Shown one piece after another: positions 2 through 11,146 of a stretch of DNA of 64,000 nt (within the stretch, counting starts at the first letter, position 1; every line of letters starts with the position of its first letter). This DNA is from an uncultured bacterium. GTDB lineage: Bacteria; Patescibacteriota; Saccharimonadia; UBA4664. The notes beneath the pieces were generated by a model. It did no database searches, was not told the DNA's origin, and worked only from the letters and a program-made list of their open reading frames with translations. Position numbers and translations under genes: made by a program. Location: the NCBI GenBank assembly GCA_963720265.1, contig CAVRET010000002.1, forward strand, positions 663,601-727,600. Reading direction: 5' to 3'.

Positions 2-724
2 GCAAAGCACCGGCATGTAATCGGCTACGGTGCAAGGGCTGAAGTACACTGGGACAAAAGCTCGATCGTACTCGCAAAACACAAAATCCCGGTCGAGCCG
101 CACGTTATCGGCGAGCATATGTTGCTCACACTCCTGGCCGCCGCCGCAGTTGCACGCGAGCTTGGCCTTTCCGACGAGCAAATCGCGGCAGGTGTTGCCA
201 AGGTCCACCCGGTATCCGGCCGCATGAACCCGCTGCCCGGCGTAAACGGCTCTCGCCTCATCGATGATACCTACAATTCCAGCCCTGACGCCGTCGTGGC
301 TGCGCTCGCGACGCTCGCAAAATACCCAGGTCAAGGCCGCCGCATTGCCGTACTCGGCTCCATGAATGAGCTTGGCGACGATGCCCCGCGCTACCACGAA
401 GAAACCGGCGCCCACGCGGCCGGCGTTGACCTGCTCATTACCATAGGCGAGCTGGCAAATAAGTATCTCGGACCGGCGGCCGTTAAGGCCGGCCTCGACC
501 CTACCCGTTTAAAGACAGCCGAAACCCCGGTTGCCGCCGGAAATTTCCTCAAATCAATGCTTACGCGAGACGACGTCGTGCTCATCAAAGGCTCCCAAGA
601 TCGCCTCTACACTGAGGAAGCCACCAAGCTCCTCCTCGCCAACTCGGCCGATGCCAAAAAACTCGTGCGCCAATCGCCGTTTTGGATGGCCAAGAAGCGC
701 AGGCAATTCCCGGACCTGCTCTAA
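2..724 (+). CDS. murF: UDP-N-acetylmuramoyl-tripeptide--D-alanyl-D-alanine ligase (MurF), C-terminal part; the 5' end lies outside the window
   Basis: The frame is open from the window edge. It carries the Mur ligase C-terminal domain with the MurF-typical RLIDDTYNSSP motif and the downstream VLGSMNELG block. Confidence 0.7.
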   Translation, partial: AKHRHVIGYGARAEVHWDKSSIVLAKHKIPVEPHVIGEHMLLTLLAAAAVARELGLSDEQIAAGVAKVHPVSGRMNPLPGVNGSRLIDDTYNSSPDAVVAALATLAKYPGQGRRIAVLGSMNELGDDAPRYHEETGAHAAGVDLLITIGELANKYLGPAAVKAGLDPTRLKTAETPVAAGNFLKSMLTRDDVVLIKGSQDRLYTEEATKLLLANSADAKKLVRQSPFWMAKKRRQFPDLL

Positions 725-819
725 ACACAAAGAACCGCCCTAGTTTGGGTGGTTCTTACAAACAATAATACCTTGGGCTGGTGCCTCCGGCTCTCGGCCT
801 CCGGCAGGCACCCGCGTTG

Positions 820-1425
820 TCATCCCTGGCTGCAGCTCACCCTGTAGGAAGTGTTGCGGTTGGTCACGGTGACCACGGCCACCGGGCCGACCGGGGCTCC
901 GGGTTTCGCCCATGACGCTAGGACGTTACCGTCTGTAACCTCGGTAATCAGCTGACCCATCACTGTCGCCTGAACGGCGATGGACGCGGTGGGCGGCAGA
1001 CACGTCATAACCCGCTGGTTGCCGTCCCACTCGATCTGGGCGTTGACGAAACTAAGATCGTCACCGGTACGGTAGTTGACCACACCGGCCGTGAGCTGGC
1101 ATGCCCGGGCGTCCGGGTACCAGGCGACTGCGGGCGAGGCGCCCGGAGCGGCCTGATAGCCTAGCGTGCTGAGATGGTTCAGAATCGGCGTAAAGGCGTC
1201 AGTAAGGGCTTGCACCTCGCTGGCGCTGCAGCCAGCCGGAGCTATCGCGCGCGGCCTGGGAGCCGAGTTGTTGTGGCTGGAAGCGGTAACTAGCGCCACG
1301 GCCCATACGACCGAGACGACAAGCACCACGGCCGCCACGATCGCCGGTCCGCGCCAGCGAGATCTGGCCAGCCTTCTAAGTATGGCCGACACACGTACGC
1401 TAGCAGGTCTCATGGTTCTCCCCAT
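820..1425 (-). CDS. hypothetical membrane-anchored protein
   Basis: A 201-aa ORF with an N-terminal Arg-rich stretch followed by a hydrophobic helix (IVAAVVLVVSVVWAVALV). No motif recognised. Confidence 0.45.
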   Translation of the reverse strand: MGRTMRPASVRVSAILRRLARSRWRGPAIVAAVVLVVSVVWAVALVTASSHNNSAPRPRAIAPAGCSASEVQALTDAFTPILNHLSTLGYQAAPGASPAVAWYPDARACQLTAGVVNYRTGDDLSFVNAQIEWDGNQRVMTCLPPTASIAVQATVMGQLITEVTDGNVLASWAKPGAPVGPVAVVTVTNRNTSYRVSCSQG

Positions 1426-1540
1426 GTCGTGAACGGGTCTAGGGTTGGTGATAGGACGGGGTTGGGATGTTAAAGCAACGTAAATTTATATTAGCATAAA
1501 AACACCAAAAAGTCAAATAATTCTTAAGCTTTACAAAGGC

Positions 1541-2110
1541 CTAAACCTGCTGCTCTTCCTCGTGAATCGCCACTCTTCCGCCCATATGTTGCCCCCGGTA
1601 GGCCGTACCACGCCCCTCGATCCGGTAAAATACAATATTGGCAATCCTAGCACCCAGCTGCAGCTGCACCGGAAAATCGCTCAAGTTCTTCAGCCCAAAC
1701 GCCAGCGGCCCTTCGTAGCCTGGGTCGGCCTTGTTGGTCAAAAGTAACAAACCCACCCGAAACAGCGTTCCCCGCGGGTAAACCATCGGCATCACATCGA
1801 GCGGCGTCTTTAACCCCTCGATCGAGCGCACTACGTAATACTTGCCCGGCTCAATGCTCACAAATTCCTCGCTCGCCGAATCCACCGCCCATTCCGCCAG
1901 CTGCTTCGTTTGCACACCCTTGCGTTTACCCAAACCTGCCTCGCCGTCGGCTTCAATAAACGCTCCGCCCTCATGAATCACATGCACCTGCCCGAGCCGC
2001 AGGTCCACGCCCACGCCCTCGGGGTTTTCCAGCTCACGCCGCCCCAGGTTCGTAATTAAGCCCTCTTCACGCACCCGCCTTAGCACTTCGTCAATGCCCA
2101 GCACTGCCAT
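1541..2110 (-). CDS. dcd: dCTP deaminase family protein (Dcd/dUTPase fold)
   Basis: The C-terminal block ADPGYEGPLAFGLKNLSDFPVQLQLGARIANIVFY matches the dCTP deaminase signature. I placed the start at ATG 2110 (MAVLGIDEV), which has a GGGAGAG SD, rather than the ORF-track Met at 2128. Confidence 0.6.
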   Translation of the reverse strand: MAVLGIDEVLRRVREEGLITNLGRRELENPEGVGVDLRLGQVHVIHEGGAFIEADGEAGLGKRKGVQTKQLAEWAVDSASEEFVSIEPGKYYVVRSIEGLKTPLDVMPMVYPRGTLFRVGLLLLTNKADPGYEGPLAFGLKNLSDFPVQLQLGARIANIVFYRIEGRGTAYRGQHMGGRVAIHEEEQQV

Positions 2111-2184
2111 GTCGCATCTCTCCCACAATCTTTCACCATCGTAGCAAATGCTATACTGATGGCGATATTGGTGGGAGGGAAACT

Positions 2185-2787
2185 ATGGCAACTCAGCCGT
2201 CCAAGCGTGATGTCGAACTAATCTATGAGGTTGGTTGCCTGCGCCTGATGCAGCGCATGTGGAGCCGGTTTCTCACGCCTGAGTTCGCCAATGTGGCCGA
2301 GCACCACTTTCGCGTGGCTTGGATCGCTCTGATTATCGCCAAATACGAACACGGCGATGAAGCCAAGGTGCTCAAAATGGCACTGGCTCACGACCTCTCG
2401 GAATCGCGCGCCGGTGATCTCGATTATGTTTCGCGGCTATATGCCGAGCGCCACGAAGACAAAGCCATTGCCGACATGCTTGACGGCACAGTGCTCGCGC
2501 CCGAAATCGTGGATCTCTGGCTCGAGTATGAAAAACTGGAGTCGCTCGAAGCCAAAATTGTCAAAGACGCCGATTATATTGATGTTGATGCTGAGTTGGC
2601 CGAGCAGCGCTCCCGTGGCAATCACGGAATCTACGACTTCAAAGAACCCATCCGGGAGCATGTCGGCGCGACCAAGCTCAAAACCGAAACCGGCAAACGC
2701 CTGTGGCAAGCAATCCGCGAGGGCAACCCCCTCGACTGGATTGCCAGTTCAAAAAACCGGCTCAACGCCGGCGACTGGAAAAAGTAA
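2185..2787 (+). CDS. HD-domain phosphohydrolase (YfbR-like 5'-deoxynucleotidase candidate)
   Basis: HD motif HHFRVAWIA...LAHDLSESRAGDL. Confidence 0.55.
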   Translation: MATQPSKRDVELIYEVGCLRLMQRMWSRFLTPEFANVAEHHFRVAWIALIIAKYEHGDEAKVLKMALAHDLSESRAGDLDYVSRLYAERHEDKAIADMLDGTVLAPEIVDLWLEYEKLESLEAKIVKDADYIDVDAELAEQRSRGNHGIYDFKEPIREHVGATKLKTETGKRLWQAIREGNPLDWIASSKNRLNAGDWKK

Positions 2788-2880
2788 ACCAAGTATTACA
2801 ATATTGCAATCCGTACAATTGAAAATACCTGCCCAGGCCGACCGAGATGCCGGCCGAGGCAGGTATTACGCGTCCCTTCG

Positions 2881-3282
2881 CTAGTCCGGCAACACAACAT
2901 CCGTCGCCGCAATAAGCGCGGCGATACAGTGCAGACACATGTCCATGCCTCTGCGGTCGTTCCATCCGCGAAAAGCGGTGTTGCAACAGGTAGAACCGTC
3001 CAGGTCGAGGAAGACATTGTGGACAACGCTTGGGCCCGTCACACGCCAAAGCTGGCCAAACAGGAACCTCACGCGCTTCTCTGCAACGGCCGTGACCGAC
3101 TGGCCAAGCATGACCACGATTCGGCCCGGCTGGCCGGACTCCTTGAAGTAGCGGATCATCCTGATGACTCGTTCCTGCATTGGCGTCTCCAGCCGGCCAA
3201 ACTGCACATTCATGCCTGTGCGCAGATAGCGCAGTCGCTCTTCTTGGCCGAGTATCTCGCCCAATGCATAACCACGGCTCAA
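2881..3282 (-). CDS. hypothetical protein. It may be the C-terminal continuation of the upstream SWIM protein (33-nt gap) and has a degenerate Cys/His cluster.
   Basis: A 133-aa ORF with protein-like composition and CCN...CLHC near its C-terminus. The overlapping + ORF 2929..4218 has R/H/Q-rich, noise-like composition. Confidence 0.35.
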   Translation of the reverse strand: MSRGYALGEILGQEERLRYLRTGMNVQFGRLETPMQERVIRMIRYFKESGQPGRIVVMLGQSVTAVAEKRVRFLFGQLWRVTGPSVVHNVFLDLDGSTCCNTAFRGWNDRRGMDMCLHCIAALIAATDVVLPD

Positions 3283-3315
3283 TCGTTGTCCCTCCTTTCA
3301 GGGCCGCCGTTCAGT

Positions 3316-4065
3316 TCACTCCGCCAACAGCTTGGCGAACGCCACCAGCAGGATTCCTTCACACAGCCGCGCTTCGGTGAAAGCCACGCAGGGGCAGGTC
3401 ATTGTGTCCAGATACACGTAGTGGTCGAGGTAGAAGTAGCGATTGGTGCCCACGTCGCTCAACGGCAACGCAGTGCCGAAGTGCTCTATCGCCAGCAGGC
3501 ACTGCTCAATGAGCGGCCGGTTGTAACTGCTACCGGTTTCCGCGCCGATCACCCAGGCGGCGACCAGTGCCAGTGCTGCCGGCTTCAACCGCTCCGGCAG
3601 GCCGGCGAACTGCATGCCCAAGAGCGGGTGGTCCTCGAGCAGATCGGGATCAGCGGACCGCTGCAAGACGTTCACCGGGTTGCTCAGGATAGCCACACCA
3701 TACTTGGCCAGGGCCACGATCAGGTGGCTACACATACCGACCTTACCCTCAAGACGCCCCTGGTACAGCGGGCAGGTGCAGGTAAGGTTGTTGAGATCGA
3801 CCGTGTACGTGCCGTCGTCGCCCGTAAACTCGAAGACGCCTGGTCCTTTACTCGTGAGCTTGCGTCCTTCGCGCAAGTATCTCGCTGCGCGCAGCGTCTT
3901 GTCGACCTGCGTTGTTTGCACATTGGCCACGAACATGATGATGAGCACATCGATCACGGCTGTCTGGGCCTTTGCCAGTCCGAATGGCCAGTCACGAATA
4001 ATCCCATGCTTGTCCATCAGCGGGCCATAACCGCGTCCGTCCAACAGCCTAAGCGTTTCAAGCAT
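3316..4065 (-). CDS. SWIM zinc-finger domain protein
   Basis: CTCPLYQGRLEGKVGMCSHL fits the SWIM pattern CxCx(n)CxH. A second Cys cluster MTCPCVAF follows. Confidence 0.5.
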   Translation of the reverse strand: MLETLRLLDGRGYGPLMDKHGIIRDWPFGLAKAQTAVIDVLIIMFVANVQTTQVDKTLRAARYLREGRKLTSKGPGVFEFTGDDGTYTVDLNNLTCTCPLYQGRLEGKVGMCSHLIVALAKYGVAILSNPVNVLQRSADPDLLEDHPLLGMQFAGLPERLKPAALALVAAWVIGAETGSSYNRPLIEQCLLAIEHFGTALPLSDVGTNRYFYLDHYVYLDTMTCPCVAFTEARLCEGILLVAFAKLLAE

Positions 4066-4189
4066 CGCGCACTCCGTTCTCCTCTGTCGTCGTTGCGATG
4101 GATATATCTTTACAACATCTTAGTAAACAACGCAACAAGCGCAGCGATCACTAGCCACAACCTCAAAAACCCCTATAATGTAGCCAGTT

Positions 4190-7100
4190 ATGAAGCAGTA
4201 CGATCCCAAAACCATTGAGCCCAAATGGCAGCAAATCTGGGCCGACACCAATCTGTATGCCGCCATCGACGGTGATTCCAGGCCAAAATATTACATGCTC
4301 ACTGAGTTCCCGTATCCGTCAGCCGCCGGTCTCCACGCCGGCCACGTACGCGAGTACACCATCGGCGACGTCATGGCCCGCCATAAACGTATGCTCGGCC
4401 ACAACGTGCTCTACCCCATGGGCTGGGACGCCTTTGGCCTGCCTACCGAAAATTACGCTATTAAGACCGGCCAGAAGCCAAAGGATGTCACTGCCACCAA
4501 CACGGCCATCTTTCGCCGCCAGATGCAATTGCTTGGCCTCGGTTTCGATTGGTCGCGCGAGGTCAATACCTCGGACCCGGCCTACTACAAATGGACCCAG
4601 TGGCTGTTTTTGCAATTCTTCAAGCACGGCCTCGCCTATCAGGCCGAGATTCCCATTAATTGGTGCCCATTTGAAAAAACCGGCCTGGCCAACGAAGAGG
4701 TGATAAATGGCGTCCACGAGCGCTGCGGCACCCCGGTTGAGAAAAAACTGCTTAAGCAATGGATGCTTAAAATCACCGCCTACGCCGACCGGCTGGTGGA
4801 TGGCTTAAAAACCGTCGACTACCCTCCCCGTATCGCCGACCAGCAAATCAACTGGATCGGCCGCTCTGAGGGTGCCAACATCGACTTCTCCGTTGCCGGC
4901 GAGAAAATTACTGTCTACACTACCCGCCCCGACACGCTCGCCGGCGCTACCTTCCTCGTGCTCGCGCCCGAGCATCCAGCCGTGGCCAAAATTACAAGAC
5001 CGCAGCAGAAAGACCGGGTTGAGCAATACGTTAAGAAAACCCAGTCCGAGACCGATCTAAACCGCCAGGAAGAAAACCGGCCCAAAACCGGTGTCTTTAC
5101 CGGCGTCCATACCATAAATCCCATCACCAAAGCCAGCATGCCGGTCTGGATTGCCGACTATGTGCTGGCCGGCTACGGTACCGGCGCCATTATGGCCGTT
5201 CCTGCCCATGATGAGCGAGATTTTGCCTTTGCCAAGGCCATGAATAAGCAGCTGGGCTACGACGTAGAGCCCACCTATGTTGACATTGAATCAACGCCTC
5301 GGCCGGACCAGCCATTCGAAAACCGCGAAGTTGCCCAGGCTATAGTCAAGCATCCGACCGAGCAAAAGTACCTATTGTTGGAGCTTAAAGCCTGGGACGA
5401 CAAATCTTACAGCTACCCCATGGGAGGAATCCACGACGGCGAAACCCCGACCGAAACGGCAGTGCGCGAGCTGACTGAGGAAACCGGCTACGACCATATC
5501 AGACACACCAGGCCGATCAGTGCGCCTTACTTTGCGGAATTTTATCACCAGCACAAACACGTCAATCGGCGCGCTCACGTCCACAGTGTATTCATTGAAC
5601 TTGCCGATCTTCACCAATCTGGCATTGCACAACACGAACGCGACCTGCACGGGCTTCATTGGCTTACCGGTGACGAGGTGGCCAGCAAGGTACTTGGTAC
5701 CGGCACAAAGAAATTAATGCTCGACTTCCTTGCCGGCCGCGCCACTCCGGCTATCGACATCATACCGGTGATCGACCCTGTCCTCATTCGCGACGATGCG
5801 AGGGATTTGAAGGAATTCAAGCGCCATCGCAAAATCGTCGCCGTCGTCGAAAATGCCGCAGGCGAAATCCTCACTATCAACTGGGGTCCAAAGTATGGCG
5901 GCCGCCTCACCATTGGCGGCACCATCGAAGGCGACGAGGCACCCGAAATTACAGCTATGCGCGAAGTCGCCGAAGAAACCGGTTACCACGACCTCGAAGT
6001 GCTCGAAACCGGCGCCGAAACCATGCATTACAAGTATTATGCCTTCTCTAAAAGGGAAGGGCACGATGTCACCGTCCGGTTCATTCATACGCGCCTTAAA
6101 AGCGACAAACGCAAAGCCCAAGATCTCAACGAATCCGAGAAAAACAAATTCACAGTCGAATGGGCAACACGCAACCAAGCCGAGCGCGAGATCGTTGAGC
6201 CGCTTCACCGCTACGCCATAAACAAATTCATCTTTGGTCATGTCCATGCCGGCGACGGTGTGCTCGTGAACTCCGGCCAATTTGACGGCCTGCAAAACGA
6301 CGAAGCCAGGCGTGCTATTGTCCAGTGGCTGTTTGATCAGGGCCTGGGCCGCCACGCCACCACCTACCGCTTGCGCGACTGGATTTTCTCACGCCAGCAC
6401 TACTGGGGCGAGCCTATCCCCATTATTCACTGCCCCAAAGACGGCGCCGTGCCCGTGCCCGACGACCAGCTGCCCGTAAAGCTGCCCGAGGTTGAGCATT
6501 ATGAACCCACCGATACCGGCGAATCGCCGCTCGCCGCCATTTCCGAATTCGTAAACACTACTTGCCCCAAGTGCGGCGGCCCGGCCAAACGCGAAACCGA
6601 CACCATGCCCAACTGGGCCGGCTCAAGCTGGTACTACCTACGCTACATGGACCCGCACAACGACCACGAATTCGCCGGCCGCGCCAACATGGATTATTGG
6701 GGCATGGTCGATATCTACCTCGGCGGAATGGAGCACACCACGCTCCACTTGCTCTATTCACGTTTTTGGCACCAGTTCTTTTACGATCAGGGCCTCGTGC
6801 CCACGCCGGAACCCTATGCCGCCCGCCGCGGTCAAGGCATAGTTTTGGCTTCGGACGGCCGTAAAATGAGTAAATCACTCGGCAACGTCGTCAACCCCAC
6901 TGACATCGTCGAACGCTACGGCGCCGATACCTTCCGTCTATACATCATGTTCATGGCGCCGTACGACGAAACCACACCCTGGAGTGACGAGCGTTTAAAC
7001 GGTGTCTCGCGCTTCCTCTACCGCGTCTGGGCGCTCGTTCAACAGTTACGTGAACCACAAGCCGAAATCGCGCCGAATGGCATTATCGAGACCGAAGTCG

Positions 7101-7588
7101 ATCGCACTACCCACAAAACCCTCAAAAAGGTCCACGACGACCTCGAAGGGATGCGCTTTAACACTTACGTCAGTGCACTTATGGAATGCGTCAATTACCT
7201 GAACTCGCCGGCGAACCTGACTGCGATTCGCAACCACCCGGCTCTCTCCGAGCGCACCATCCGGACGCTCATTCTCATGCTCGCCCCGGCCGCACCGCAC
7301 CTGGCCGAAGAGCTTTGGCACGAGCTGGGCGAGCAGGGGAGCGTGCATACTGCACCATGGCCCAAATACGACCCCGAGCTCATCAAGGACGACCTCATCA
7401 CCATAGTGGTACAGATAAACGGAAAGGTTCGTGGCCAAACCACGGCCCCGGCCGACGTCACCGAGGCCGACCTCATCAATTTAGCCTCAATCGAGCCCAA
7501 GGTGGCCGCTCTGCTTGATGGCAAAAAGGTTGCAAATACTATTGTCGTGCCCCGCCGCCTCGTCAATTTCGTCGTTAAGGAGAGCTAG
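4190..7588 (+). CDS. leuS: leucyl-tRNA synthetase with an insertion of about 335 aa containing two Nudix domains
   Basis: HAGH (HIGH variant), the editing-domain blocks TTRPDTLAGATFLVLAPEHP and GTGAIMAVPAHDERDF, YRLRDWIFSRQHYWGEPIP, KMSKSLGN, and the anticodon-binding region are all present. Two perfect Nudix boxes, GGIHDGETPTETAVRELTEETGY and [24 protein letters not shown], lie between the editing domain and SGQFDGL. Confidence 0.9.
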   Translation: MKQYDPKTIEPKWQQIWADTNLYAAIDGDSRPKYYMLTEFPYPSAAGLHAGHVREYTIGDVMARHKRMLGHNVLYPMGWDAFGLPTENYAIKTGQKPKDVTATNTAIFRRQMQLLGLGFDWSREVNTSDPAYYKWTQWLFLQFFKHGLAYQAEIPINWCPFEKTGLANEEVINGVHERCGTPVEKKLLKQWMLKITAYADRLVDGLKTVDYPPRIADQQINWIGRSEGANIDFSVAGEKITVYTTRPDTLAGATFLVLAPEHPAVAKITRPQQKDRVEQYVKKTQSETDLNRQEENRPKTGVFTGVHTINPITKASMPVWIADYVLAGYGTGAIMAVPAHDERDFAFAKAMNKQLGYDVEPTYVDIESTPRPDQPFENREVAQAIVKHPTEQKYLLLELKAWDDKSYSYPMGGIHDGETPTETAVRELTEETGYDHIRHTRPISAPYFAEFYHQHKHVNRRAHVHSVFIELADLHQSGIAQHERDLHGLHWLTGDEVASKVLGTGTKKLMLDFLAGRATPAIDIIPVIDPVLIRDDARDLKEFKRHRKIVAVVENAAGEILTINWGPKYGGRLTIGGTIEGDEAPEITAMREVAEETGYHDLEVLETGAETMHYKYYAFSKREGHDVTVRFIHTRLKSDKRKAQDLNESEKNKFTVEWATRNQAEREIVEPLHRYAINKFIFGHVHAGDGVLVNSGQFDGLQNDEARRAIVQWLFDQGLGRHATTYRLRDWIFSRQHYWGEPIPIIHCPKDGAVPVPDDQLPVKLPEVEHYEPTDTGESPLAAISEFVNTTCPKCGGPAKRETDTMPNWAGSSWYYLRYMDPHNDHEFAGRANMDYWGMVDIYLGGMEHTTLHLLYSRFWHQFFYDQGLVPTPEPYAARRGQGIVLASDGRKMSKSLGNVVNPTDIVERYGADTFRLYIMFMAPYDETTPWSDERLNGVSRFLYRVWALVQQLREPQAEIAPNGIIETEVDRTTHKTLKKVHDDLEGMRFNTYVSALMECVNYLNSPANLTAIRNHPALSERTIRTLILMLAPAAPHLAEELWHELGEQGSVHTAPWPKYDPELIKDDLITIVVQINGKVRGQTTAPADVTEADLINLASIEPKVAALLDGKKVANTIVVPRRLVNFVVKES

Positions 7589-8115
7589 TGGGCCTCAAAA
7601 TCGACTACAAATTTTGCCCGCAATGTCGACGGCCGATGACTCGTACCGCCGAGGGTGACCCGCATTGCGGGCATTGTGACATTACCGTTTATGACGATGT
7701 TGCCGCCGGTGCCTCAGCGCTGATTATCCGTGACGATCATGTTTTGCTCAGCCGGCGCGCCCGCGAGCCATATGAGGGTGACTATGACCTGGTTGGTGGA
7801 TTCATGAAGGCCGGCGAGTCACCTGAGCAAACGGCGGCCCGTGAGGCCATGGAAGAGACAGGACTAACCATAAAAATCAGTAAACTGCTTGGCATCTATC
7901 CCGATCAATACGGTGAAAACGGAAGCCCCGTCATTAGCATCGTCTATATCGGAGAGCACGTCGCCGGTTCAGAACAGGCAGGCGACGACGCTGCTGCTCT
8001 TGAATGGGTCGAAATTGAGCGGATCCCACCAGTCGCTTTTCAAAGCCGCTTCCAAAGCGTCCGCCAACCCTTGCACGATCTGCAGACCTGGTACCGCAGG
8101 CGAAAGGCGAGCTAG
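7588..8115 (+). CDS. NUDIX hydrolase with an N-terminal C4 zinc ribbon (NudC-like architecture)
   Basis: CPQC...CGHC zinc ribbon followed by the Nudix box GGFMKAGESPEQTAAREAMEETGL. The GTG start overlaps the leuS stop (TAGTG). Confidence 0.6.
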   Translation: MGLKIDYKFCPQCRRPMTRTAEGDPHCGHCDITVYDDVAAGASALIIRDDHVLLSRRAREPYEGDYDLVGGFMKAGESPEQTAAREAMEETGLTIKISKLLGIYPDQYGENGSPVISIVYIGEHVAGSEQAGDDAAALEWVEIERIPPVAFQSRFQSVRQPLHDLQTWYRRRKAS

Positions 8116-8777
8116 TGCCAGACCGCGCCGACTACTATCAAATTCTCGGCATCAAACCTTCTGCGACCGCAGCCGAAATCAAAACCGCCTATCACACTGC
8201 CGCCAAGCGCGCTCACCCGGACGCCGGCGGCTCGGCCGAAGCTATGCAGCGGGTCAACGAGGCGTATGCCGCGCTCAATGACCCGGATGCCCGGGCCGAC
8301 TACGACTACGACCACGCGGCAGTGAATCAGCCACCGCCCGAACGCCGGGCCACCCATACTGGACAGCCGCCCGCCTCGCCTCCCCATGCTGCCGCAGCCA
8401 CCGCCCGCGCTCAGGCCGAGGCCCAGGCCAGGGCCGATTATCGCCGCGCCATGGGCTACGCCCGCCGCTCAGCCTTCAAACAATTCGGCCTAAGTGCTTT
8501 CGCCGCCGCGGTCTTGTCCCCACCATGCCGCTTCTGGCCGCACGCGTACCCGATCGCAGCACCAAAACCATTTTTGCCCTCATTGCCTTCGCGCCCGTCT
8601 ATAGTCTCGCCATTGCCATCATGTTCTTGGCGCAACCGCGCCTACGTTTGGCCGTCGCCGTCATGGGCCACAGGAATGCCAGGCTTTCGCGCCACGACCG
8701 CACTGCTCTCGCTGGCATTGCCCTGGCTGCACTGCCACTTGCCGCCATTTGGGTCGTTCTCTTCAATTTTGGCCTGA
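8115..8777 (+). CDS. J-domain (DnaJ-like) protein. Its C-terminal third is probably frame-shifted relative to a membrane segment.
   Basis: J domain YYQILGIKPSATAAEIKTAYHTAAKRAHPDAGG. Downstream, the composition degenerates, while the alternate-frame ORF 8525..8785 encodes clean TM helices. Confidence 0.55.
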   Translation: MPDRADYYQILGIKPSATAAEIKTAYHTAAKRAHPDAGGSAEAMQRVNEAYAALNDPDARADYDYDHAAVNQPPPERRATHTGQPPASPPHAAAATARAQAEAQARADYRRAMGYARRSAFKQFGLSAFAAAVLSPPCRFWPHAYPIAAPKPFLPSLPSRPSIVSPLPSCSWRNRAYVWPSPSWATGMPGFRATTALLSLALPWLHCHLPPFGSFSSILA

Positions 8778-9473: not shown

Positions 9474-9947
9474 ATGGCTTCCAATCGTCATCTCGGCCGC
9501 ATCGTTGCCATGCAAACGCTCTACGAGCATGATTTTCGTGGTGGCGACGGTACCGAGCTCGCTCTTGACCCCATTCTCCAGCGCAATCTCGATGAATTCC
9601 GCAGCTCCATCGACGACATCAACTTCGTTGAAGACCTAGTTTCCGGCGTGCACGAGCACCAGGCCGAAATCGACGGCATTATCGGTCCAGCCGCGCCCGA
9701 ATGGCCGGTTGAGCAGATTGCTAAGATCGACAAAATTATCCTGCGCATCGGTGTATACGAGCTCATGATCAAGCGGGATGTTCCACCGAAGGTTGCCATC
9801 AACGAGGCCGTTGAGCTGGCCAAAACCTTCGGCGGCGAAAACTCGAGTAAATTTATTAACGGTGTCCTCGGCACCATCTATCGGAACAGTGATTTTTATG
9901 AACCAGAAAGCGAAAAACCGGCCGTACCGACCGACCAAAACGAGTAA
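9474..9947 (+). CDS. nusB: transcription antitermination factor NusB
   Basis: AREIAMQ-like N-terminus ([11 protein letters not shown]), FVEDLVSGV, and [25 protein letters not shown]. Confidence 0.85.
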
Positions 9948-10461
9948 AACCCCGCCTCGCATTAAGGCCACCCGCGAATACACCGCCGGCGGCGTGGTGT
10001 TTCGGCGCATCGATGACCGCATCGACATCCTCATGATCCAAGACCGCCTCGGCCGTTGGACCATTCCCAAGGGCCACGTTGAACCCGGCGAAAGCTTGGA
10101 GCAAACAGCGCTGCGTGAAGTGGCTGAGGAAACCGGTCTGCAGCGCTTTCGCATCGGCGAAAAGCTCGACACATTGCGCTTTTTTTATCGCAAAGATGGC
10201 AAGCTCATCTTCATGACCACCGACGTGTTTGTCATGGAGGCGCTTGGTGATACCGAAAGCTTAAGCCACGGTGACTCAGCAGGCATCGTTGATGTGAAGT
10301 GGTTTGCAGCCGACCGCGCCCTCAAACTAGTGGAATACCGCGATACCGAGCGGCTGTTCCGCATGTGCCTGGCCAAACTCGATGCGCCGGGGTCAAAACA
10401 TCAGCACCGTCGTCCTCGCCGCCGCCTCGCCACTGCGACCGGAGGCCGCACTAGTGAATAA
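9898..10461 (+). CDS. NUDIX hydrolase
   Basis: Nudix box [23 protein letters not shown]. The start was moved to ATG 9898 (MNQKAK...), which is in frame with the track ORF 9778. Confidence 0.6.
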
Positions 10462-11146
10462 CCCGGAGTTGGCCGACTTCCAGCAGCGCCTCGCCGTAAC
10501 TTTCAATGACCCACAGCTACTCGAACGCGCCTTTATCCACCGTTCGTACCTCAACGAACACCCTAAGCTTGGTCTCGAGCACAACGAGCGCCTGGAGTTC
10601 CTGGGCGATGCAGTGCTCGAATTGGTAGTAACGGATCACCTCTACCGCAATTACCCGAATCCCGAAGGAGACCTCACCAACTGGCGCTCGGCCCTTGTTA
10701 AAACCGAATCGCTGGCCGCCGCCGCCGACAAGCTGCAGATTGCGCCCTATTTCAAGCTCAGCCGTGGCGAGGCCAAGGGCAACGCCAGATCGCACGCCCT
10801 CATTTCTGCCAATGCGGTTGAAGCCATTATCGGTGCGATCTATCTGGACCAGGGCTACGATACGGCCGCCGACTTTATTAATGAGCATATCGTTTCCCGC
10901 CTGCCAGAAATTCTCGAAACCGGAACTTGGATGGACCCCAAAAGCAAGTTCCAAGAGCTGGCCCAAGAACGTTACGGCCTAACCCCCGTCTACAAAGTTA
11001 TTGAAGAATCCGGCCCCGACCATGACAAGGTCTTCACTGTCGGCGCCTATGTTGGCGACAAGCGCTTCGGCCAAGGCACTGGATCATCCAAGCAGGCCGC
11101 CCAACAAGTTGCCGCTGCCACCGCCCTCAAGCAAATTAAGCAGTAA
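10454..11146 (+). CDS. rnc: ribonuclease III
   Basis: RNase III signature ERLEFLGDAVLELVV plus a C-terminal dsRBD. I prefer the GTG start at 10454, which is preceded by GGAGG. Confidence 0.85.
   Translation: MNNPELADFQQRLAVTFNDPQLLERAFIHRSYLNEHPKLGLEHNERLEFLGDAVLELVVTDHLYRNYPNPEGDLTNWRSALVKTESLAAAADKLQIAPYFKLSRGEAKGNARSHALISANAVEAIIGAIYLDQGYDTAADFINEHIVSRLPEILETGTWMDPKSKFQELAQERYGLTPVYKVIEESGPDHDKVFTVGAYVGDKRFGQGTGSSKQAAQQVAAATALKQIKQ

Follow-up and report, generated by a model that had tools for sequence, protein, structure and literature searches.

A leucyl-tRNA synthetase with two Nudix domains in its CP1 editing domain from a Saccharimonadia bacterium

The leuS gene and the site of the insertion

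The window, a 64-kb stretch of DNA analysed here as a whole, carries leuS as one unbroken open reading frame (ORF) at 4190-7588 of the forward strand, on which all features described below also lie. The ORF list and the NCBIfam model TIGR00396 (leuS_bact) identify its product as a bacterial-type leucyl-tRNA synthetase (LeuRS) of 1132 aa with a double Nudix insertion; the protein scores 997.8 bits against a curated equivalog cut-off of 548.4, and the match splits into two stretches that flank the insertion. No second LeuRS-like ORF is present in the 64-kb window besides that at 4190-7588. The best solved relative is the Thermus thermophilus (Tth) LeuRS 1H3N (E = 1e-229). Pfam assigns the editing domain PF13603 to aa 221-361 (197 bits, profile positions 2-142 of 185), together with tRNA-synt_1, Anticodon_1 and NUDIX (PF00293). 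The HIGH-type class I signature reads HAGH (aa 49-52; 4334-4345) and aligns with HMGH of Tth LeuRS, and the KMSKS signature (aa 892-896; 6863-6877) aligns with its Tth counterpart. The part of the CP1 editing domain lying 5' of the insertion (4850-5272, from PF13603) contains the T-rich motif TTRPDT (aa 244-249; nt 4919-4936) and AHDERD (aa 339-344; nt 5204-5221). CP1 and the catalytic core resume at 6251-6382 (GDGVLVNSGQFDGL ... YRLRDW), and an anticodon-binding-type helical domain (PF08264, aa 972-1089) follows at 7103-7456. HAGH, KMSKS, TTRPDT and AHDERD all lie in this single ORF. Its product probably serves as the working LeuRS of a bacterium of the Saccharimonadia (TM7/Patescibacteria), a placement taken from the names of relatives.

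The alignment with 1H3N breaks at query residue 352 (Tth 355) and restarts at query residue 688 (Tth 379), so that ~335 aa stand in place of ~24 aa. The insertion takes the place of a short, variable hairpin on the CP1 surface, close to the C-terminal end of this domain and inside PF13603; the AHDERD helix precedes it and the SGxFDGL strand follows. A sequence-only reading of this DNA had proposed a LeuRS of 1132 aa in total with an insertion of about 335 aa at 5255-6259 (aa 356-690). The ORF, Pfam and the 1H3N alignment confirm both, the structure alignment mapping the insertion between Tth residues 355 and 379, and the segment GTGAIMAVPAHDERDF lies at aa 330-345, exactly where it had been placed.

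The insert has a GC content of 0.53-0.55, the same as its flanks, and matches no Pfam family beyond NUDIX, which leaves a recent gain as foreign DNA, an intein or a mobile element unsupported. A protein identical to the window LeuRS (P0004) is encoded on a public contig of 1,108,292 bp, and two Nudix domains occupy the same LeuRS site in P0006, P0010 and P0012, which come from other public sources and contigs. P0010 and P0012 carry the same pair of first (Nud1) and second (Nud2) units as the window protein; P0006 differs in having a divergent second domain. An assembly chimera or frameshift is ruled out by the single ORF, the identical public protein and these independent double-Nudix LeuRSs. 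In one relative (L001/P0003), leuS is broken into two ORFs; this looks like an indel error and not biology, the contig name hinting at a nanopore-polished assembly.

Two Nudix modules of different subtype

Nud1 spans aa 356-519 (5255-5746) and Nud2 aa 527-687 (5768-6250), on the evidence of Pfam NUDIX (aa 544-676 in Nud2), AlphaFold2 and Foldseek. Both contain an exact match to the Nudix box GX5EX7REUXEEXGU, namely GGIHDGETPTETAVRELTEETGY at aa 412-434 (5423-5491) in Nud1 and a second box at aa 577-599 (5918-5986) in Nud2. The two exact boxes had been predicted from the sequence, with residue numbers that were off by 1-2, and PF00293 indeed matches in two stretches (90.6 bits; cut-off 21.1). 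As the region is Nudix and its boxes lie in the synthetase frame, a frame mismatch and a known non-Nudix LeuRS insertion both fail as alternatives. Both modules are modelled with the alpha/beta/alpha sandwich of the Nudix fold. The AlphaFold2 models reach a pLDDT of 94.6 for Nud1 and 93.0 for Nud2, each with a pTM of 0.88, and Foldseek returns more than 450 PDB Nudix chains per model at E <= 1e-3, the top 50 all having a probability of 1.0. Nud1 starts with a degenerate copy of a junction motif (GYDVEPTYVD), and a second copy, PAIDIIPVIDPV (aa 520-531; 5747-5782), recognised from relatives and by hhalign, joins the two units. The latter is the counterpart of the "LPIxPVIxPV" segment found ahead of single Nudix inserts in relatives, and hhalign aligns both junctions between the two units, one copy standing ahead of each module.

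Profile comparison identifies Nud1 and Nud2 as homologous units of ~20% identity, and BLASTP between them aligns the Nudix box alone (13/23 identities). No DNA repeat was found between the two regions beyond the EETGY codons. A recent tandem duplication is ruled out by the restriction of the BLASTP match to the 23-aa box and by this lack of a DNA repeat. Nud1-type and Nud2-type domains are each found alone at the same site of other LeuRSs. The earlier description of the pair as "tandem" thus holds for position and fails in the sense of a simple duplicate, since the two are diverged subtypes, both belonging to one Nudix clade, that each occur singly elsewhere.

Each of the three box glutamates is retained in nearly all of 267 related domain copies (263, 259 and 263). 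Outside the box, K456 and N459 of Nud1 are invariant in its family alignment (A1); in that of Nud2 (A2), the box residues R591, E592, E595 and E596 are invariant, as are W565, K621 and H673 outside the box. The kept glutamates and invariant residues suggest that catalysis by both modules is under selection. A very different role, in which the Nudix folds would act as a non-catalytic sensor or scaffold that binds a nucleotide metabolite, a protein or RNA and regulates LeuRS, can be likened to the NUDT9-H domain of TRPM2 or the NrtR regulators. Nudix domains without enzymatic activity form a recognised class (PMC5389931), and in a minority of the 267 copies the Gx5E glutamate is changed to Q or D or the box Arg is lost. 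However, both boxes are exact in the window protein, and retention of the metal-binding glutamates in ~97-99% of copies is unexpected for pure binding modules. Of the roles considered here, this one is given the slightest credence.

Regarding the substrate, the X-loop motifs are FYHQHKHVNRR in Nud1 (5540-5572; column counts, 32 sequences) and HYKYYAFSK in Nud2 (6026-6052; 33 sequences), with F451/Y452 and Y616/Y617, respectively, at positions +17/+18 from the box. A Tyr in the X-loop ~17 aa past the box correlates with ApnA activity (Dunn 1999, summarised in PMC5389931). The aromatic pair, a weak and non-exclusive marker for ApnA hydrolases, is missing from just one sequence (A1, n = 32; A2, n = 33). 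In the fold searches of both modules, the Ap6A hydrolase Ndx1, the Ap4A hydrolases CT771 and aq_158, and RppH appear near the top. The closest solved homologue of both is 2AZW, an Enterococcus faecalis Nudix protein without characterised activity, which aligns across the whole domain with both module profiles. The Nud1 profile matches lupin Ap4A hydrolase (1.3e-9) within the confines of the box, and the Nud2 profile gives no match to characterised Ap4A/Ap6A hydrolases at 1e-5. Neither module reaches any NCBIfam Nudix equivalog cut-off, and the characterised subfamilies RppH, MutT, NudB, NudC, NudE, ADPRase and YtkD were rejected as assignments, all lying far below their curated cut-offs. The scores are 44.6 bits against 116 for RppH (NF001938 and related models), the match comprising ~35 box residues; 32.6 against 97.9 (TIGR00586) and 38.6 against 148 (NF008044) for MutT 8-oxo-dGTPase; 21.6 against 79.55 for ADP-ribose pyrophosphatase (TIGR00052, YffH/AdpP); 30.6 against 169 for NudE (NF008736); and, for the window LeuRS, 17.9 against 158 for NudC NADH pyrophosphatase (NF001299), whose motif SQPWPFPxS is absent from both X-loops.

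These matches also bear on the idea that the modules strip a 5' triphosphate or a cap (NAD, Np4A) from RNA held by the synthetase, tRNALeu or other. Their action would resemble that of RppH, NudC or AvrM14, with the editing domain placing them near the acceptor end. It is established structural knowledge that CP1 of LeuRS binds the tRNA 3' end, which adjoins the 5' end. RppH structures stand high in both fold searches, the Nud1 profile matches the mRNA-decapping effector AvrM14 over the full domain (E = 4e-8), and RNA-binding-type ASCH domains occur at CP1 sites of relatives. RNA pyrophosphohydrolase models are the top NCBIfam matches of Nud1, but all are below cut-off and limited to the Nudix box. 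Furthermore, mature tRNA 5' ends are monophosphates made by RNase P, and free-standing relatives of the modules are found beside valS and thrS too, leaving no particular tie to tRNALeu. An RNA-end function is considered unlikely.

Gene neighbours, relatives and possible roles

Directly 3' of leuS, a gene at 7588-8115 encodes a zinc-ribbon and Nudix protein of 175 aa (Pfam NUDIX, 72 bits; 54.7 bits with the NudC model NF001299, below the cut-off of 158). Its GTG start overlaps the TAG stop of leuS and an AAGGAG lies 8 nt upstream, which makes translational coupling to leuS probable. The gene at 9898-10461, 2.3 kb downstream of leuS, encodes a canonical Ap4A-hydrolase homologue that matches 3I7U over its full length (E = 1e-16), Ndx1 (3e-14) and also NUDT2, and it is far closer to Ap4A/Ap6A hydrolases than either Nudix module is. 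Its product may already cover ApnA clearance, and the simple idea of a LeuRS-tethered Ap4A hydrolase was down-weighted because of it. The neighbours in the window also include a dCTP deaminase/dUTPase-like protein and a YfbR-like HD 5'-deoxynucleotidase.

PF00293 is present in most of the best 120 LeuRS relatives, and in all of the best 120 matches when a low-GC LeuRS is used as the query. In 80/80 of the best GTDB loci, a Nudix domain lies within or adjoins the LeuRS coding sequence (in the same ORF in 79); the closest GTDB match to the window LeuRS is 67% identical. By record title, these 80 loci belong to Saccharimonadia, Paceibacteria/Parcubacteria and low-GC "Bacilli" metagenome-assembled genomes (MAGs). 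Some MAG loci bear the titles "Gammaproteobacteria" or "Muribaculaceae", which were not trusted, whereas the "Bacilli" titles are plausible because the loci form a coherent group of 27-33% GC and one relative is named "leucine--tRNA ligase [Bacilli bacterium]" by NCBI. LeuRSs with Nudix at the CP1 site are very common in Patescibacteria and in these "Bacilli"-titled MAGs. The window architecture is no one-off: LeuRSs of this hybrid kind form a large family in bacteria with tiny genomes, of which the window protein is an elaborate example. One such protein bears the automatic JGI product name "leucyl-tRNA synthetase/ADP-ribose pyrophosphatase YjhB", and no published description of a Nudix-bearing LeuRS was found in the literature on aaRS or LeuRS with Nudix or ASCH and on Saccharibacteria and Patescibacteria.

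The inserts of relatives vary from 0 to 3 Nudix domains (three modules in L005 and P0017); in some, a Ser-hydrolase or ASCH module takes the same CP1 position, and three sites are used overall. The closest relative, P0005 (87% identity in the best local alignment), is without Nud1, and LeuRSs of ~820 aa without any insert occur in the same clade. Architectures are patchy on the LeuRS core tree, and even between closely related cores inserts have come, gone or been exchanged. Among nine free-standing Nudix relatives, five are encoded immediately upstream of a synthetase gene (three before leuS, one before valS and one before thrS), one of them with a 2-nt gap to a leuS without an insert, and the other four adjoin no synthetase gene. 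Such adjacency in 5/9 is very unlikely by chance if, as assumed, synthetases make up ~2% of genes. The Nud1/Nud2 clade is almost always embedded in the LeuRS site or encoded directly upstream of an aaRS gene.

The variability raises the possibility that the modules merely hitch-hike on a permissive CP1 hairpin. They would be ordinary house-cleaning or salvage enzymes of the MutT, ADP-ribose or NTP type, and embedding in an essential gene would give them constitutive expression in a tiny genome without any mechanistic tie to leucylation. The free variation in module type and number, the patchy architectures, the loss of Nud1 in P0005, the adjoining genes for nucleotide house-cleaning and the 4/9 free-standing relatives away from any synthetase all favour hitch-hiking. 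On the other hand, the association is LeuRS-specific across very divergent lineages, the link persists in unfused form in the 5/9 genes upstream of leuS, valS or thrS, and the inserts, although easily lost, are mostly kept. Hitch-hiking is a serious contender, if a somewhat improbable one.

The occurrence of Nudix, Ser-hydrolase and ASCH modules at the same sites inside the editing domain also allows them to be regarded as swappable add-ons that broaden what CP1 can edit, with Nudix hydrolysing non-cognate aminoacyl-adenylates and Ser-hydrolase aminoacyl esters. The unfused Nudix genes, moreover, pair solely with the editing-proficient synthetases LeuRS, ValRS and ThrRS. This idea, which is entirely inferential, conflicts with the chemistry: acyl-adenylates do not have the diphosphate that Nudix enzymes attack, and to our knowledge no Nudix enzyme cleaves them. 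As the canonical CP1 editing residues of the window LeuRS are intact, there is no obvious need for extra proofreading, and such a role is very unlikely.

The explanation preferred here, tentatively and with its chance put somewhat below even, is that the Nudix pair in the CP1 hairpin acts beside a functional LeuRS on adenine-nucleotide by-products. The two autonomous Nudix-fold modules that stand one after the other in place of the hairpin are both predicted to be active Mg2+-dependent pyrophosphohydrolases, and the synthetase and its CP1 editing site would stay functional. Working next to the synthetase, the modules would remove by-products of aminoacyl-adenylate chemistry, the candidates being ApnN-type dinucleoside polyphosphates or the matching 5'-5' polyphosphate RNA caps, and the two subtypes might take different members of one substrate class. 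The fold neighbours (ApnA hydrolases and RppH), the aromatic X-loop and the aaRS-adjacent free-standing genes are consistent with an Ap4A- or cap-hydrolase function. LeuRS is not known to be among the strongest Ap4A producers. The ApnA reading is weakened by the Ser-hydrolase and ASCH modules at the same CP1 sites, because these cannot cleave pyrophosphate bonds, and the gain, loss and swapping of inserts between close cores, together with the insert-free ~820-aa LeuRSs, also count against the preferred explanation. Its least secure step is the assignment of the substrate. In a wider and more doubtful form, Nud1 and Nud2 would represent an unrecognised synthetase-associated Nudix family, and CP1 would be a modular docking platform on which reduced-genome bacteria mount Nudix, Ser-hydrolase and ASCH as accessory hydrolases for clean-up or proofreading. 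Such activities might include the destruction in cis of ApnN alarmones or Np4 caps arising at the adenylate site, or hydrolysis of non-cognate aminoacyl-adenylates by Nudix; in either case, the quality control of aaRS or the control of alarmones would gain a new layer.

Aminoacyl-tRNA synthetases are among the best-studied enzymes, and the accretion of extra domains is seen mainly as a eukaryotic theme. Here, a bacterial synthetase has catalytic domains of an unrelated superfamily built into its proofreading domain, where they are kept under selection in many lineages, and fusion and gene-neighbourhood evidence together point to a previously undescribed functional partnership between Nudix and synthetase. 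Should their substrates prove to be dinucleotide polyphosphates or caps made by the synthetase, the modules would provide a direct, testable handle on the control of Ap4A-type alarmones at the source. If the modules do not act in this way, the family is still a clear natural case in which domains were inserted and modules exchanged within an essential enzyme, in minimal-genome and mostly uncultured bacteria. It would also be a useful guide to permissive positions for LeuRS engineering.

Comparison with known systems

The window protein aligns collinearly over its full length with the LeuRSs of T. thermophilus (1H3N/2BYT) and Escherichia coli (4AQ7 family), including the HIGH-type and KMSKS signatures, and shares with canonical bacterial LeuRSs a CP1 with the T-rich motif and the AHDxRD aspartates and a C-terminal tRNA-binding region. 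It differs from the Tth enzyme in having ~335 aa with two Nudix domains for the ~24-aa hairpin of residues 355-379, and the leucine-specific domain (Tth ~581-636) is missing. Some Cys at putative zinc-ligand positions of Tth LeuRS are replaced. Another class Ia editing synthetase with an extra enzymatic domain is IleRS with GNAT (NF040702, ileS_w_GNAT); there, the added domain is an N-acetyltransferase, and the window protein is far below the NF040702 cut-off.

The small Nudix comparators aq_158 (3I7U, Aquifex), Ndx1 (1VC8, T. thermophilus), CT771 (4MPO, Chlamydia), E. coli RppH and E. faecalis 2AZW resemble the modules in their compact single-domain fold, complete box and aromatic X-loop, at 15-25% identity and TM-scores of 0.5-0.7. 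The known small ApnA hydrolases and RppH are free-standing proteins, whereas the window modules are loops of a synthetase. NUDT2 and RppH remove synthetase-made Ap4A or Ap4-cap products, and the axis of LysU/LysRS, Ap4A and Nudix (NUDT2 in humans; RppH and ApaH in E. coli) follows the functional logic proposed here. LysU makes Ap4A and adds Ap4 caps to RNA (PMC9437257). That axis differs in that the synthetase is of class II and the hydrolase is a separate protein, and the LeuRS parallel is a proposal by analogy.

NMN adenylyltransferases and class I synthetases share the HxGH nucleotidyltransferase fold. In NadM-Nudix (Synechocystis NADM_SYNY3; NMN adenylyltransferase/ADP-ribose pyrophosphatase), a bifunctional enzyme mentioned in PMC5389931, a nucleotidyltransferase is likewise fused to an active Nudix domain, which handles a product of related nucleotide chemistry. 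In contrast to the window protein, the fusion is terminal, the transferase is another one, and the Nudix half belongs to an ADP-ribose-type clade with a Pro signature. The single-Nudix LeuRSs of Patescibacteria and low-GC "Bacilli" MAGs resemble the window protein in insertion site, Nudix clade and junction motifs. They carry one module, of the Nud1 or the Nud2 type, in ~940-985 aa, whereas the window protein has one of each in series, a double arrangement common to a few relatives (P0010, P0012 and P0006).

A leucyl-tRNA synthetase with two Nudix units in CP1

The leuS gene (4190-7588, forward strand) is a single open reading frame encoding 1132 aa. A Pfam scan of the product matched the class I catalytic domain, the editing domain, the anticodon-binding domain and, in two stretches, NUDIX (PF00293), and the bacterial LeuRS model of NCBIfam (TIGR00396, leuS_bact) gave 997.8 bits (cut-off 548.4). 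The synthetase signatures HAGH (aa 49-52), TTRPDT (aa 244-249), AHDERD (aa 339-344) and KMSKS (aa 892-896) are intact. The editing domain CP1 was matched by PF13603 at aa 221-361, corresponding to profile positions 2-142 of 185. Alignment to the solved LeuRS of T. thermophilus (Tth; 1H3N) breaks at residue 352 (Tth 355) and restarts at residue 688 (Tth 379). Therefore, about 335 residues stand in place of a hairpin of about 24 residues within CP1. This insert, whose GC content equals that of its flanks, comprises two Nudix units, Nud1 (aa 356-519) and Nud2 (aa 527-687). A regular-expression scan located an exact Nudix box (GX5EX7REUXEEXGU) in each unit, at aa 412-434 (nt 5423-5491) and aa 577-599 (nt 5918-5986), both on the forward strand and in the synthetase frame, which runs counter to an assembly artefact. 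The sequence-only reading had described a LeuRS with an insertion of two Nudix domains; this description was right within one or two residues, and the architecture is practically certain. Compared with Tth LeuRS, the protein lacks the leucine-specific domain, as residues 888 and 892 (window 6857-6863), only four positions apart, align with Tth 580 and 637. Some of the cysteines at what we take to be the zinc-ligand positions of Tth LeuRS are replaced (WCPFEKT, HCPKDG).

A perfect TATAAT (4175-4180) lies only 10 nt ahead of the leuS ATG (4190), and no obvious Shine-Dalgarno sequence was seen between them (window 4171-4192), which may mean that the transcript has no leader or a very short one. 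Just upstream lie two genes for nucleotide house-cleaning, a dCTP deaminase/dUTPase-like gene (1541-2128, reverse strand) and an HD-domain YfbR-like 5'-deoxynucleotidase gene (2185-2787, forward strand), as well as a gene for a SWIM zinc-finger protein (3316-4065, reverse strand).

Origin and turnover of the inserted modules

BLASTP aligned the Nud1 and Nud2 halves over the box alone (13/23 identities), and the codons of EETGY are the only stretch common to their DNA, ruling out a fresh tandem duplication. Homologues of the inserts split into two families, Nud1-type (motifs VQxIVKHPTEDKYLLL, SFVTGGI and FYHxxKxxNRRA) and Nud2-type (ILTINWGP..GG, YKYYAFSK, LDESEK..FxVEW and EPLHRY), each of which occurs singly at the identical site in other LeuRSs, behind an 'LPIxPVIxP' junction and ahead of 'GEGxL-VNSG'. 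In the window protein, a degenerate junction (GYDVEPTYVD) precedes Nud1, and a second junction copy, PAIDIIPVIDPV, stands ahead of Nud2. Profile-profile comparison aligned the two families over 161 columns including the junctions (99.9% probability, E 1e-31, 20% identity), and the top structural match of both models is 2AZW, an uncharacterised Nudix protein. The single occurrence of each family, the repeated junctions and the profile homology mean that Nud1 and Nud2 are best read as having diverged from a single ancestral 'junction + Nudix' cassette; an old duplication would have brought them together, or else LeuRS alleles carrying different subtypes recombined. The two domains noted from the sequence are thus homologous units but not recent duplicates.

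A protein identical to the window LeuRS (P0004) is present in NCBI/ENA on a 1,108,292-bp contig, and the named relatives carry depositors' labels of Candidatus Saccharimonadia/Saccharimonadales or other Patescibacteria groups. Segment mapping of 153 full-length LeuRS-like proteins found one Nudix domain in 112, two in 10, three in 2 and none in 29. Nud1 and Nud2 occur together in P0010 and P0012; P0006 likewise has two domains, the second of them divergent, and the triple forms are encoded at locus L005 (1461 aa) and by P0017 (1616 aa). When one GTDB genome per species was scanned with the Nud2 profile, at least 401 relatives were confirmed; among the best 80 loci, the Nudix domain accompanied a LeuRS coding sequence in all 80 and lay within the same ORF in 79. 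By depositors' titles, these loci include Saccharimonadia, Parcubacteria/Paceibacteria, Taylorbacteria and Giovannonibacteria, together with a coherent group of 27-33% GC titled Bacilli/Bacillota/Tenericutes/Mycoplasmatota. PF00293 was found in all of the best 120 matches of one LeuRS of this low-GC group, and one match is named 'leucine--tRNA ligase [Bacilli bacterium]' at NCBI. The Nudix insertion is spread over records of both the Patescibacteria group and the low-GC 'Bacilli'. At locus L001 (8001-10912), leuS-Nudix comes out as two separate ORFs (523 and 383 aa) that overlap out of frame; the 464-kb contig bears a name (_np1212) suggesting a nanopore-polished assembly, and an indel error rather than a genuine split gene is most likely.

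Relatives carry modules at three sites, corresponding in the window protein to aa ~236-242 (site 1; CP1 start, Pfam position ~14-17), aa ~353-687 (site 2, occupied here by Nud1 and Nud2) and aa ~747-757 (site 3; nt 6428-6460, within the HCxxC...VPVP knuckle of the catalytic core), the last of which holds no insert in the window protein. The modules are Nudix, Ser_hydrolase (PF06821 and related alpha/beta-hydrolase families) and ASCH (PF04266), in many combinations. Seven relatives (P0011, P0017, P0018, P0048, P0050, P0072 and P0090) have PF06821 or PF04266 at the two CP1 sites that bear Nudix elsewhere, P0090 having Ser-hydrolases at both, and in three more (P0124, P0125 and P0133) site 1 bears a pair of Nudix domains. 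Site 3 is occupied in P0005, P0058, P0017, P0206 and P0223: by a module of about 130 aa that is ASCH-like by eye, to which a Pfam scan assigned no family in P0005 and P0017, and in P0223 by a putative Ser-hydrolase (GHSLGS motif). On a crude neighbour-joining tree of LeuRS cores, built from simple distances, the architectures are patchy: double-Nudix LeuRSs are not monophyletic, insert-less LeuRSs of ~820 aa are nested among insert-bearers, and P0005, to which the window protein is most closely related, has no Nud1 but does have the ASCH-like module at site 3. This patchiness indicates that the CP1 modules are gained, lost and exchanged far faster than the LeuRS core diverges. The rapid turnover and the Ser-hydrolase and ASCH modules at Nudix sites are the main facts poorly absorbed by a link between the Nudix modules and synthetase chemistry; a rival explanation is that the Nudix modules are house-cleaning enzymes, uncoupled from LeuRS, hitch-hiking in a permissive loop.

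Synthetase-linked relatives and other Nudix genes

Genomic context was checked for nine relatives of the Nud1 and Nud2 families that are encoded as stand-alone genes. Three lie immediately upstream of leuS: P0134 (locus L082), P0165 (a JGI contig) and P0195 (L093/L094), the last with a 2-nt gap and a leuS without insert (TIGR00396 946 bits, single stretch). The Nud2-type P0140 (L084, region 711-3462) lies 4 nt upstream of a short valS (760 aa; NF004349 767 bits, cut-off 704), and the Nud1-type P0149 (L085, region 661-1986) lies 48 nt upstream of thrS. No synthetase gene adjoins P0153, P0158, P0169 or P0189. A tenth candidate, P0171, is just one piece of a disrupted leuS-Nudix gene. Adjacency in 5/9 is far above chance if ~2% of genes are assumed to be synthetases, with some cases sharing synteny and hence not fully independent. 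L082 represents a mixed state, having a free Nud1-type gene and a leuS with a Nud2-type insert. The fused, adjacent and mixed states provide the classical fusion and neighbourhood argument for partnership with synthetases, contrary to mere hitch-hiking, and the valS and thrS cases extend the association of this Nudix clade beyond LeuRS. LeuRS, ValRS and ThrRS are all editing-proficient and all act via aminoacyl-adenylates; an extended proofreading platform is another rival reading of the CP1 modules.

The window contains four exact Nudix boxes within ~6.3 kb. Directly downstream of leuS, a gene of 175 aa (7588-8115, forward strand) encodes a zinc ribbon (CxxC...CxxC) and a Nudix domain; the TAG stop of leuS and the GTG start of this gene overlap (TAGTG), and AAGGAG lies 8 nt upstream, an arrangement suggestive of translational coupling to leuS. 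The product resembles the zinc-ribbon and Nudix part of NudC (NF001299 54.7 bits, cut-off 158; PDB NudC matches ~1e-10), whereas the SQPWPFPxS motif of NudC is absent. The GTG start of the next gene (8115-8777, forward strand) overlaps the stop of this 175-aa gene; its product combines a DnaJ J domain (PF00226, aa 6-64) with a long C-terminal half that is rich in Ala and Pro, of low complexity and encoded at high GC (0.65). The fourth Nudix gene (9778-10461, forward strand, probable start near 9898) lies between nusB (9474-9947) and rnc (10382-11146), a position also holding a Nudix gene in L001 (12586-13089) and L082 (9283-9783). Over its full length, the product is homologous to characterised diadenosine polyphosphate (ApnA) hydrolases (3I7U 1e-16, Ndx1 3e-14, C. 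elegans 1KT9 and human NUDT2), so dedicated ApnA hydrolysis is probably already encoded outside leuS. This weighs against the simplest form of the earlier suggestion, a LeuRS-tethered Ap4A hydrolase; the modules in LeuRS may act on other compounds of the ApnA-type chemical class, or on something else.

Catalytic competence, substrates and known systems

The three box glutamates are kept in 263, 259 and 263 of 267 related domain copies. The box arginine is retained in 228; the Gx5E glutamate, where replaced mostly by Q or D, remains in 223. Outside the box, K456 and N459 are invariant in the Nud1 family, and W565, K621, E650 and H673 in the Nud2 family. AlphaFold2 models from the family alignments were confident (pLDDT 94.6 for Nud1 and 93.0 for Nud2; pTM 0.88) and matched Nudix structures with probability 1.0. 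These features argue for active hydrolases and against decayed or purely structural domains, as well as against the rival of a non-catalytic sensor; both units are likely to be catalytically competent.

No curated NCBIfam equivalog cut-off was reached by the LeuRS modules, including RppH (44.6 vs 116), MutT (32.6 vs 97.9), NudB (43.9 vs 103), NudC (17.9 vs 158) and ADPRase (21.6 vs 79.55). The best structural neighbours following 2AZW are the Ap6A hydrolase Ndx1, the Ap4A hydrolases CT771 and aq_158, RppH, NudI and YmfB, at TM-scores of only 0.5-0.7. The decapping effector AvrM14 aligned with the Nud1 profile over the whole domain (E 4e-8). In the X-loop downstream of the box, both families keep two adjacent aromatic residues (+17/+18) and, at +22, a Lys that is invariant; an X-loop Tyr correlates with diadenosine-polyphosphate activity (PMC5389931). 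Together, the fold neighbours, the AvrM14 match and the X-loop aromatics hint at dinucleoside polyphosphates or 5'-5' caps. Processing of tRNA or RNA 5' ends is a rival reading of the same modules. Adenylate-derived dinucleotide polyphosphates or 5'-5' polyphosphate caps would be the most plausible substrates, a tentative assignment with somewhat less than an even chance of being correct.

The best supported interpretation is that the window protein is a functional LeuRS displaying two putatively active Nudix pyrophosphohydrolases, for which the permissive CP1 hairpin would serve as the display site and which selection would tie to synthetase chemistry. No description of a Nudix or other enzymatic module inside LeuRS CP1 was found in full-text searches of the literature; Nudix-LeuRS proteins are already in public databases, one with an automatic bifunctional JGI product name. 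LysU, which synthesizes Ap4A and caps RNA with Ap4 (PMC9437257), is a functional precedent for the proposed LeuRS-linked ApnN/cap chemistry. LeuRSs, Nudix hydrolases and multidomain synthetases are all known kinds, and their combination here does not make a new category of system. With two different Nudix subtypes in series, the window protein ranks among the more elaborate members.
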